Below, piece after piece: positions 45,001 through 48,000 of a stretch of 64,000 bases of DNA. Origin of the DNA: a virus (taxonomy: Duplodnaviria; Heunggongvirae; Uroviricota; Caudoviricetes); IMG/VR virus record IMGVR_UViG_2684623171_000005; one strand, 5' to 3'. The position numbers were made by a program. Position 1 is the first letter of the stretch. Every line of letters starts with the position of its first letter.

Positions 45001-48000
45001 ACTGCTTCACCATCTGCCTGAACAACTGAGTAAACGGGAGAGGTATTCCGAAAAATGGCAACGACGAACGCATTCAGCCTGGCGTCACCGCCACTGGCAC
45101 GTATCTGCCTTCACGGGGATTTACAACGATTTGGCCGCCGCCTCAGCCTGTATGTGAACACGGCAGCGGAAGCCATCCGTGCCCTGTCGATGCAGATGCC
45201 GGGATTCCGCCGTCAGATGAACGAAGGCTGGTACCAGATACGTATTGCCGGTGATGACACGGCACCGGAGGCGGTGTACGCCCGTCTTCACGAACAGCTG
45301 GGTGAGGGAACGGTCATCCACATTGTGCCGCGACTGGCCGGGGCCGGAAAGGGTGGACTGCAGATTGTGCTGGGGGCGGCGGCCATCGTGGGGTCGTTCT
45401 TCACGGCCGGGGCATCAATGGCGTTATGGGGTTCAGCCCTGGCAGCCGGTGGTTTTTCTGCCACCACGATGCTGTTTTCACTGGGGGCCAGCATGATACT
45501 GGGCGGTGTGGCCCAGATGCTGGCACCGAAGGCAAAAACACCGGATTACCGCGCAACGGATAACGGCAGACAGAACACGTACTTTTCCTCACTGGACAAC
45601 ATGATTGCTCAGGGGAACCCGATGCCGGTGCCTTACGGTGAAATGCTGGTTGGCTCACGGCGAATCTCCCAGGACATCAGTACCCGTGATGAAGGCGGTG
45701 ACGGGAAGGTGGTGGTTATCGGGCGGCAGGCATAAAAGCGAAAAAATCCCGCAGTGACCGAAGGCTGCGGGAACAGAAAATGAAGATTAACCACAGGGAG
45801 TTTTGTTTTTATTGGCCCGAAAAAACTGTAACGCCCGGGAATGATATCTGCCACGGGGGCGTACAGAAAATGTGAAGAAATTCAGAAATTTTATTCCGTC
45901 ATGACACAGGCACCCTCCGGGGTGCCTGTCGTTTTTGGGGCATAAACAGATTCAGACATCAGACATCAGACATCAGACAGGAGAGGGGGACCGAGTGGGT
46001 AAAGGTGGCGGCAGGGCACACACGCCGGTTGAGGCAAAGGACAATCTTAAGTCCACGCAGATGATGAGCGTGATTGATGCCATTGGTGAAGGGCCGATTG
46101 AAGGTCCGGTGAAGGGGCTGCAGAGTATCCTGGTGAACAAAACCCCGCTGACGGACACGGACGGTAATCCTGTGATACATGGTGTGACCGCGGTCTGGCG
46201 CGCCGGGGAGCAGGAGCAGACACCACCTGAAGGCTTTGAGTCCTCCGGGGCGGAAACCGCACTGGGCGTGGAAGTGACGAAGGCAAAGCCGGTGACGCGC
46301 ACCATTACGTCCGCGAACATTGACCGCCTGCGGGTCACCTTCGGGGTGCAGTCACTGTTGGAGACCACCTCAAAGGGCGACCGTAATCCCTCTTCTGTCC
46401 GACTGCTGATTCAGTTGCAGCGTAACGGTAACTGGGTGACGGAAAAGGATGTCACCATTAACGGCAAGACCACCTCGCAGTTTCTGGCGTCGGTGATTCT
46501 GGATAATCTGCCTCCCCGTCCTTTTAACATCCGGATGGTCCGGGAGACGGCGGACAGCACCTCGGACCAGCTGCAGAATAAGACGCTCTGGTCGTCATAC
46601 ACCGAAATCATCGATGTGAAACAGTGCTACCCGAACACGGCGATTGTGGGGCTGCAGGTGGATGCGGAGCAGTTTGGTGGCCAGCAGATGACGGTGAACT
46701 ACCATATCCGCGGTCGCATCATCCAGGTGCCGTCAAACTATGACCCGGAAAAACGCACGTACAGCGGCATCTGGGACGGCAGCCTGAAACCGGCATACAG
46801 CAACAACCCGGCCTGGTGCCTGTGGGACATGCTGACTCACCCGCGCTACGGCATGGGAAAACGCCTGGGGGCGGCGGATGTGGACAAGTGGGCGCTGTAT
46901 GCCATTGCGCAGTACTGCGACCAGATGGTCCCTGATGGTTTCGGGGGCACAGAGCCGCGGATGACCTTTAATGCGTACCTGTCACAACAGCGTAAGGCGT
47001 GGGACGTTCTCAGTGATTTCTGCTCGGCGATGCGCTGTATGCCGGTATGGAACGGCCAGACGCTGACGTTCGTTCAGGACAGTCCGTCGGATGTGGTGTG
47101 GCCGTACACCAACAGTGATGTGGTGGTGGATGATAACGGCGTGGGGTTTCGCTACAGCTTCAGCGCCCTGAAGGACCGCCACACGGCGGTGGAGGTGAAT
47201 TACACCGACCCGCAGAACGGCTGGCAGACCTCCACGGAACTGGTGGAAGACCCGGAAGCCATACTGCGCTACGGGCGCAACCTGCTGAAGATGGATGCGT
47301 TCGGTTGCACCAGTCGCGGTCAGGCCCACCGTGCCGGGCTGTGGGTGATAAAGACCGGACTGCTGGAAACGCAGACGGTGGATTTCACGCTCGGGTCACA
47401 GGGGCTGCGTCACACACCCGGTGACATTATTGAAATCTGTGATAACGACTATGCCGGGACCATGACCGGCGGACGTGTCCTGTCCATCGATGCCGCCAGC
47501 CGCACCCTGACACTGGACCGTGAGGTGACCCTGCCGGAGACCGGTGCCGCCACGGTGAACCTGATTAACGGCAGCGGTAAGCCGGTGAGCGTGGCCATCA
47601 CTGCACACCCCGCGCCGGACCGGATACAGGTCAGCACCCTGCCGGATGGCGTGGAGACATACGGTGTGTGGGGGCTCTCCCTGCCGTCACTGCGTCGTCG
47701 CCTGTTCCGCTGTGTCTCCATCCGGGAAAACACGGACGGCACCTTTGCCATCACGGCAGTGCAGCACGTACCGGAAAAAGAAGCCATCGTGGATAACGGG
47801 GCGCACTTTGACGGCGACCAGAGCGGCACCCTGAACAGCGTCATCCCTCCGGCAGTGCAGCACCTGACGGTGGAGGTGAGTGCAGCTGACAGCCAGTATC
47901 TGGCACAGGCGAAATGGGACACGCCGCGGGTGGTGAAGGGGGTGCGCTTCAGTCTGCGACTGACCAGCGGAAGCGGAGAAGGCAGCCGTCTGGTGACCAC

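Follow-up and report, generated by a model that had tools for sequence, protein, structure and literature searches.

The spacer between the tail genes I and J of a lambdoid Shiga toxin (Stx) prophage of Escherichia coli O157:H7 very probably carries a gene for a small RNA (sRNA) on the strand opposite the tail genes. The prophage is contained in IMG/VR record IMGVR_UViG_2684623171_000005, a stretch of 64,000 nt that we refer to in its whole length as the window and whose positions are used below. Our reading, to which we assign a probability of about 0.8, is that the main content of the I–J spacer is a divergent and unannotated minus-strand allele of the Hfq-dependent sRNA family formed by PasB and EcOnc22-24. 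This kind of sRNA is itself known; our analysis adds the link between EcOnc22-24 and PasB, the breadth of the alleles, their tandem arrays and a candidate CRP site.

When PasB was compared with the window by blastn, we found one significant match, on the minus strand of the spacer (45813 to 45741, 80% identity over 75 columns, 88% of the query, E = 7e-12). The predicted EcOnc22 RNA matched with 77% identity over 71 columns (E = 6e-07), and the window allele is 73.5% identical to the allele of Sakai Sp15, with the differences lying mostly in the 5' half. Megablast of PasB against the window did not find the allele. The predicted RNA, whose body reads ...ACUCCCUGUGGUUAAUCUUCAUUUUCUGUU, carries the conserved elements 5' GCGUUAC, a U-run, ACUCCCU and, directly ahead of the terminator, UUAAUCUUCAU. 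It would be ~95 nt long if its 5' end lies at 45834, 7 nt past the -10 box, and ~80 nt if its 5' end matches the annotated one of PasB (45820); from promoter to terminator the unit spans ~90-100 nt. By analogy with its published relatives, the window allele would be expressed as a discrete transcript of ~80-95 nt that binds Hfq.

The initial annotation of this DNA had pointed to a long gap between I and J, and our count of 259 nt (45736-45994, from the TAA of I to the GTG of J) bears this out. It had also taken the two genes to be contiguous in lambda, which is incorrect: lambda I (14773-15444) and J (from 15505) lie 60 nt apart (15445-15504). The window J has the Pfam domains FNIII-A_GpJ and Phage-tail_3 and the same N-terminal residues as lambda J. 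Positions 45700-46030 are 100% identical in the Stx2-converting (mostly Stx2c) phages 2851, 1717 and YYZ-2008 and in 87 complete E. coli genomes, and neither RefSeq nor the deposited phage records annotate an sRNA gene in the spacer. We gathered I–J spacers from IMG/VR contigs with a related J, from a pattern scan and from reference genomes, and aligned 62 distinct sequences that were picked by their I and J anchors and not by any conserved block (alignment A1). Most of them are 234-260 nt long and can be aligned end to end. Hardly any variation is seen in three parts: (i) AAAAAAATCCCGCAG-loop-CTGCGGG directly past the I stop codon; (ii) the block AAATGTGAAGAnnTTCAGAAnTTTTATTC, at about 45866-45903 in the window, which is the most conserved stretch; and (iii) a plus-strand hairpin. 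Besides 149 phage records, 793-849 of 5426 complete E. coli genomes contain the spacer; the median number per genome is 3-5 copies. Because the spacer is conserved as a whole in these phage records and in 849 of the genomes, its features are not due to chance. The positions of the features are collected in Table 1.

Table 1. Features of the I–J spacer and its borders in the window.
Feature	Position	Strand	Basis or remark
Stop codon of gene I (TAA)	45733..45735	+	Sequence; reading frame 45055-45735; Pfam Lambda_tail_I, E = 1.5e-16
Predicted PasB/EcOnc22-family sRNA, window allele	45741..45834	-	blastn of PasB and conserved elements; expression of this allele is predicted from sequence
Predicted intrinsic terminator of the antisense sRNA	45741..45772	-	(U)CCCGCAG-loop-CUGCGGG(A) 45772->45747, then U6 45746->45741
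31-codon reading frame MKINHREF..., judged non-coding	45780..45875	+	Antisense of the sRNA body; ATG, frame and length not conserved
Putative -10 hexamer of the sRNA promoter (TATCAT)	45841..45846	-	Fixed position in 78 units; -35 region weak (TTCTGT)
CRP-like palindrome TGTGA-AGAAAT-TCAGA	45871..45886		In the most conserved block, upstream of the sRNA -10 box with constant spacing
Predicted intrinsic terminator of I-to-J transcription	45906..45936	+	Stem 45906-45915 with 45920-45929, loop TCCG, then CGTTTTT; terminator scan
TCAGACA x 4, repeat-number polymorphism in the untranslated J leader	45952..45979	+	Tandem Repeats Finder
J ribosome-binding site GGAGAGGGGG (45980-89) and GTG start (45995)	45980..45997	+	Sequence; lambda J N-terminus; Pfam FNIII-A_GpJ, E = 2.6e-42

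Homologous RNAs in Sakai and E2348/69

Which RNAs do homologous spacers produce? EcOnc22, EcOnc23 and EcOnc24, from Sakai Sp15, Sp14 and Sp11, are plus-strand RNAs of ~85 nt on Northern blots and are destabilised in the absence of hfq (PMC4104026, Table S2). The regions ECs2161...ECs2162, ECs2718...ECs2721 and ECs2942...ECs2945 are among the top 50 Hfq-bound intergenic regions (PMC4104026, Table S1B), with ~21,000-33,000 reads from cDNA analysis after cross-linking to Hfq (CRAC) in 3 of 5 samples, entered in the plus-strand column. We checked the meaning of this column against spf, ssrA, cyaR and micA (plus) and ryhB and sroC (minus). In the current Sakai record, all three regions are I–J spacers whose I and J genes lie on the minus strand. 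Thus, EcOnc22-24 are antisense to the tail genes.

The EcOnc coordinates in Table S2 follow an older Sakai sequence, from which NC_002695.2 differs by about +137 to +142 at 1.27 and 1.94 Mb; the anchors for this shift were AgvB1, located by Rfam, and the stated 282-bp distance between AsxR and stx2B. After the shift, the EcOnc22 peak (~2902851-2902916) falls within the unit that we predicted from sequence (2902836-2902926), and the gene names of Table S1B confirm the locus independently of any coordinates. Read unshifted, the coordinates would place the CRAC peak antisense to the plus-strand hairpin, a placement that the older numbering of the table rules out. Sakai carries two further alleles with near-consensus promoters, in Sp9 (L209, 1794545-1794692) and Sp12 (L210, 2217573-2217727); the Sp9 unit sits between a truncated tail gene and J, with K and I deleted.

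PasB, in NC_011601.1 of E2348/69, a strain of enteropathogenic E. coli (EPEC), is an RNA of 83 nt on the minus strand (1466343->1466261) that was detected on Northern blots with the probe AATCCCGCAGTGATCGCGGAGCT (PMC8550237, Table S6). Its level falls without hfq (log2 fold changes of -6.8 and -2.4), and among its 37 interactions found by ligating and sequencing interacting RNAs (RIL-seq) it is the second RNA in 99-100% of the chimeric fragments (PMC8550237). Such Hfq dependence and such a second-RNA position are typical of trans-acting sRNAs. In the E2348/69 genome, we found PasB between I (ending at 1466255) and J (starting at 1466496), both on the plus strand, and its Northern probe corresponds to the left hairpin of the spacer family.

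PasB resembles the window allele in its I–J slot, its antisense strand, its terminator, its 5' GCGUUA, the position of its -10 box and the TGTGA/TCAGA block upstream; both also share UU(A/G)AUCUUCAU, a segment proposed as the seed. They differ in the centre and the 5' ~40 nt, and the promoter of PasB combines TATAAT with TTCACA whereas in the window allele the hexamer is TATCAT and the -35 region is weak. EcOnc22-24 share slot, strand and cassette layout with the window allele. Judged by sequence and locus, EcOnc22-24 (2014) and PasB (2021) are one family that was discovered twice, independently. The two names are not linked in the papers that we consulted: the PasB row of Table S6 carries no note of a homologue in enterohaemorrhagic E. 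coli (EHEC) (PMC8550237), and a 2021 review gives the targets of EcOnc22-24 as unknown (PMC7873438). A preprint on Pas sRNAs (Zhu, Shabalina and Storz, 2026) reports 24 phage matches for PasB, compared with the 149 phage records of the present analysis, and is silent on CRP, on promoters and on tandem arrays of PasB. The window allele was probably not counted there as PasB, because megablast does not find it.

Identity with AgvB or AsxR was considered for the spacer RNA and rejected, as these RNAs map downstream of PR' and the Rfam models RF02702 and RF02703 gave no match; this search covered 45500-46200 even at E <= 10, and the same procedure detects AgvB in Sakai. AgvB and AsxR are similar to the PasB type in being Hfq-binding prophage moron sRNAs with a conserved 3' terminator module, a variable 5' region and many alleles. 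They are unlike the window sRNA in their site downstream of PR', their length of 51-60 nt and their unrelated sequence.

Predicted promoter, candidate CRP site and predicted terminators

The putative -10 box is a hexamer that lies exactly 24 nt past the TTCACA of block (ii). In 78 distinct units, it was TATAAT in 30, AATAAT in 25, TATCAT in 12 and CATAAT in 6, and A2 and T6 were kept in 75-76 of them. A promoter scan called the homologous promoter of L093 as TTCACA-16-TATAAT (11 of 12 matches). In the expressed Sakai allele too, the scan detected no -35 element.

Upstream of this hexamer lies a palindrome, AAATGTGA-AGAAAT-TCAGA, with one mismatch to the core of the CRP consensus, TGTGA-N6-TCACA, and with AAA and A/T-rich flanks. 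The pattern TGTGAN6TCASA has its sole match in the window here, against 0.22 expected. Across the 62 spacers and 78 units, the half-sites are invariant while positions of the 6-nt spacer vary. Because the distance of the palindrome to the -10 box is fixed and because it is present in every unit of the tandem arrays described below, we consider the block as tied to the sRNA promoter and not to the plus-strand hairpin. Its centre is ~-60 from the annotated 5' end of PasB. The level of PasB is higher in the condition in which that of Spot 42 is lower, and cAMP-CRP represses Spot 42. This pattern fits activation by CRP, without proving it; from its sequence, the site would be bound by CRP and may place the sRNA promoter under CRP control.

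Several results weigh against the reading of the spacer as a CRP-linked sRNA gene. At least one TGTGAN6TCASA match occurred in 14 of 100 shuffles, and the centre of the site, at ~-44.5 from the predicted start, is at neither of the classic positions, -41.5 and -61.5. The -35 region of the window allele is poor, and the promoter scan of the window called no promoter. Compared with the start that the -10 box predicts, PasB has its annotated 5' end ~15 nt further downstream, so that the RNA must be processed or else the prediction of the start is inaccurate. RNAalifold gave no supported structure or covariation for the 5' part of the sRNA, and diverged terminators aligned poorly. Rfam searches of both strands of the spacer, at curated and permissive thresholds, returned no family. 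Finally, the Sp9 and Sp12 alleles of Sakai are absent from the top lists of Hfq-CRAC.

The predicted terminator of the sRNA is strongly conserved: in the 62 spacers, its 7 stem pairs are essentially fixed (6 invariant, 1 with a single exception) and its loop is variable. A terminator scan called the equivalent element in relatives, with a U-tract of U6-7; in the window, 5 nt separate the end of this tract from the I stop codon. Some diverged units of tandem arrays have another hairpin and T-run at this place (UCUCCCGU.../...ACGGGAGA).

The initial annotation had also noted a terminator-like hairpin in the spacer, and the terminator scan calls it as well. This plus-strand hairpin, ACAGGCACCC-TCCG-GGGTGCCTGT (45906-45929), has a 10-bp stem with 7 G-C pairs and a 4-nt loop. 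Six of the 10 stem pairs never vary; one has a compensatory change of C:G to U:A (13 sequences), for which 9 sequences show the U.G intermediate, and two others show U.G or G.U variants. These wobble pairs are legal in the plus-strand RNA only. The lambda I–J spacer (L200 746-805 = lambda 15445-15504) contains a hairpin as well, CCGCC-TGCG-GGCGG-TTTTGTCATTT with its T-run; this lambda hairpin, AAACCGCC-TGCG-GGCGGTTTTGTC, stands just upstream of the J ribosome-binding site and is the counterpart of the plus-strand hairpin of the window. Both are GC-rich stems with a T-run, on the plus strand, ahead of the J ribosome-binding site; the lambda spacer differs by its length of 60 nt, the lack of an antisense cassette and of the heptamer, and an unrelated stem sequence. 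The T-run, the variation of the pairs and the lambda counterpart together lead us to read the hairpin as an intrinsic terminator that would stop rightward transcription. The hairpin is older at the I–J junction than the sRNA cassette.

How might the cassette work? We propose that the I–J spacer would be a non-coding moron cassette in many lambdoid prophages of EHEC, EPEC and Shiga toxin-producing E. coli (STEC). A sigma-70 promoter, with TATCAT and a weak -35 near the CRP-like site, would drive the minus-strand sRNA of ~80-95 nt, which would end at the Rho-independent terminator by the I stop codon. In Sakai and E2348/69, RNAs of the family bind Hfq, need it for stability and are nearly always the second RNA in chimeras, and the product would thus be a trans-acting base-pairing sRNA in the lysogen. 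Its 3' part (UUAAUCUUCAU and terminator) is conserved and its 5' and central part differs between alleles, so that target sets may differ. The plus-strand terminator would stop unmodified polymerase ahead of J in the lysogen. In lambda biology, Q-modified polymerase reads through terminators, and it would do so here in lytic growth. The TCAGACA array would be a slippage-prone repeat in the J leader, for which no regulatory role is predicted.

Tandem arrays, the heptamer and alternative readings

Spacers of 475, 712 and 904-926 nt in IMG/VR proved to be tandem arrays of 2, 3 and 4 diverged sRNA units with a linker between them, and the complete genome of RM14516 carries a tandem array too (L211 1-430). 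Because such relatives hold 2-4 tandem copies, each with the CRP-like site, the -10 box, the RNA body and the terminator, the cassette behaves as a unit. Tandem arrays of PasB units are not described in the PasB literature that we examined. In spacers of 848-851 nt, the antisense strand was found to hold instead a gene for a Cu,Zn superoxide dismutase (Pfam Sod_Cu; e.g., L001 840-1367, minus). This gene shares the left terminator, and its 3' untranslated region is the retained 3' part of the sRNA body. It is probably the known prophage gene sodC-F. The sodC-F1/F2 moron of O157:H7 (PMC2569942) has the I–J slot, the antisense strand and the left terminator in common with the sRNA cassette, from which it differs in coding for a protein and in replacing the sRNA promoter. 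Since arrays and sodC occupy the same slot, the I–J junction is a general slot for antisense-strand morons. In the manner of a moron, the sRNA cassette has its own -10 box and terminator and lies between genes that are closer together in lambda.

The initial annotation had suggested that the insert marks a recombination junction. Halves of the spacer do reassort, within block (ii) and the hairpin: L003, L018 and L030 combine a left half of the window type with another J leader, and J-leader types switch at the hairpin. The spacer itself is a conserved cassette and not a scar, and this part of the suggestion falls. When one genome per species was scanned for the conserved block, the only species found beyond likely contaminants and chance matches was E. 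albertii. Very short contigs in assemblies of unrelated species contain the block (L202, a 546-nt contig of Asaia platycodi that carries an E. coli-type right half of the spacer, and also L203 and L207); they are probably assembly contamination.

The J leader contains the heptamer repeat that the initial annotation described as three CAGACAT and one CAGACAG (45953-45980), which is the same array as four perfect copies of TCAGACA. Tandem Repeats Finder reports a period of 7, 4.0 copies and 100% matches, and the array ends directly before the first base of the J ribosome-binding site. Its copy number is not invariant: relatives have 2, 3, 4 or 6 copies, most of them 2 (~90%), some 3, and the window lineage 4. 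The scan pattern was matched by 114 IMG/VR stretches, of which 104 have 1 CAGACAT unit ahead of the final CAGACAG, 5 have 2 and 5 have 3. The same 4-copy allele is present in each of the 84 complete genomes that reach at least 99% identity in their best match to the repeat-containing segment, which speaks against hypervariability. Sampled 4-copy genomes were O157:H7 or untyped, and one O103:H2 genome carries 4 copies at 98.1%. A 3-copy query matched 6 genomes at 99% or more, and 6 copies were found in one genome, RM14516. In HB6, two prophages have spacers that are identical except for 4 versus 3 units (3-unit spacer, L212 157-408, otherwise identical to that of the window), which in sequence comparison is a clean single-unit slippage event; the change of a whole unit on an identical background is consistent with replication slippage. 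Other J-leader types in A1 have no repeat at all. In any case, the heptamer may be usable as a typing marker for phage lineages.

Are the repeats translated? The initial annotation had allowed for a J start upstream of the repeats, and we rejected such a start at TTG 45935, since the in-frame extension from this codon is not conserved among relatives, in which the open stretch above the GTG ranges from 9 to 44 codons. Because the upstream frame is not conserved and length differences of 14 nt shift it, the repeats are non-coding. The idea that slipped-strand changes in the repeat tune J translation holds in that the copy number varies by whole units; it fails in that no gating is predicted and the spacing from ribosome-binding site to start codon is untouched. 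In folding predictions, the accessibility of the ribosome-binding site was 0.69, 0.74, 0.78 and 0.76 for 2, 3, 4 and 6 copies, a marginal change that led us to discard copy-number gating through RNA structure, and the promoter scan called no promoter at the array. We thus find no basis for a heptamer switch; the array may have a mild effect on J translation. In A1 alleles s17 and s31 (e.g., L151 and L052), the cassette lies between two direct copies of an 11-nt sequence, AGATTCAGACA, one just past the left terminator and one at the start of the heptamer array. This repeat gives the s17/s31 RNA an 11-nt perfect match to the J leader and may be a trace of the origin of the cassette or of the heptamer.

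Could the spacer serve another function? An RNA that is by construction antisense to the late operon, and whose terminator abuts the I stop codon, could act mainly in cis on the I–J junction of the late transcript, to which it is perfectly complementary, by triggering processing of this transcript or lowering I or J at induction, instead of regulating host mRNAs. We regard this as unlikely, as PasB makes its Hfq-mediated interactions in uninduced EPEC, nearly always as the second RNA, and the RNA overlaps neither the J ribosome-binding site nor the I coding sequence; moreover, for the window, Sp15 and PasB alleles, the sRNA was predicted to pair no better than shuffled RNAs do with the J leader or the heptamers. 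Much the same region could encode a small plus-strand protein (31 amino acids here, 39-41 in relatives), perhaps in a type I toxin-antitoxin pair with the antisense RNA, which covers the reading frame; several alleles indeed have an ATG reading frame of 39-41 codons that ends with TGA immediately before the hairpin. This is hardly credible given that the ATG is absent in 20 of the 62 spacers, frame and length vary (10-54 amino acids), the conserved 3' block is read in different frames and conservation is at the nucleotide level. The window peptide is not hydrophobic and has no match to a Pfam family, and no plus-strand promoter was called for it.

The reassortment of halves and the switch of leader types at the hairpin would also be expected if the spacer were only a recombination linker for the exchange of the tail-assembly and J modules, with no expressed product in this phage. 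We hold this to be improbable, because homologous spacers give abundant Hfq-bound RNA in two pathotypes and because even tandem units that have diverged retain the -10 box and the terminator, which a linker would not need. A comparably poor prospect is that the heptamer is a contingency locus, in which copy-number slippage beside the ribosome-binding site switches or tunes J translation and thereby the supply of tail or host-range protein. The HB6 pair, the existence of alleles with 2, 3, 4 and 6 copies and the contact of the array with the ribosome-binding site speak for it, and C/A-rich leaders are translational enhancers. Against this stand the unaltered start-codon spacing and reading frames, the narrow range of predicted accessibility, the uniformity of 4 copies in the window lineage and of 2 in ~90% of relatives, the repeat-free leaders, and the shortness of 2-6 units for a hypermutable tract. 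The array is like the contingency loci of Haemophilus and Neisseria in that a short tandem unit varies by whole units, and unlike them in lying outside any reading frame and not between -35 and -10 elements, in having 2-6 units and in being fixed in number within a lineage. A wider proposal, which we make tentatively and think possible although not probable, is that the I–J junction of lambdoid prophages of EHEC, EPEC and STEC is a dedicated site for sRNA cassettes: CRP-responsive PasB-type units with a conserved Hfq/terminator module and diversifying 5' targeting regions would form arrays of 2-4 and reassort via the conserved block, and the TCAGACA repeat would add a slow, heritable adjustment of J translation. 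If so, strains that have at least five prophages would produce a set of PasB paralogues differing in their targets, and the window allele would be an undescribed paralogue of PasB.

Under our preferred reading, a divergent PasB/EcOnc22-family allele on the minus strand, the annotation of Stx phages 2851, 1717 and YYZ-2008 changes, in that their I–J gap would carry a gene of this family. With its divergent alleles, tandem arrays and shared candidate CRP site, the family is broader than surveys based on BLAST suggest. If its alleles differ in their targets, the lambdoid prophages of EHEC would jointly supply Hfq-dependent regulators tied to carbon status, which would be relevant to colonisation and to the effects of Shiga toxin phages on their host.

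Other elements of the window

Above curated thresholds, Rfam identified the STnc100 sRNA (21563-21774, plus), isrK (16047-16123, plus), a C4 antisense RNA (16149-16232, plus) and the lambda cIII thermoregulator (2250-2308, minus). An ALIL pseudoknot (9913-10029, minus, 121 bits) is the frameshift signal of IS3-family transposases and indicates that the early region of the prophage contains an insertion sequence (IS). Three consecutive tRNA genes (19912-20152, plus) lie upstream of STnc100; in Stx phages, this is the position of ileZ-argN-argO, before the toxin genes. Further repeats were found outside the spacer. At 34443-35035, a 162-bp unit is repeated 3.7 times with 97% identity; it corresponds to 54 codons in frame, has a nested 75-bp periodicity and presumably represents a domain repeat of a head or decoration gene. 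A 30-bp unit is repeated 3.1 times with 92% identity at 16477-16570, near isrK and the C4 RNA. In the tail fibre gene downstream of J, 51079-51240 shows periodicities of 9 and 45 bp (GCAGGCCCACAGGGACCAAAAGGAGAA...), and these repeats look like collagen-type Gly-X-Y.

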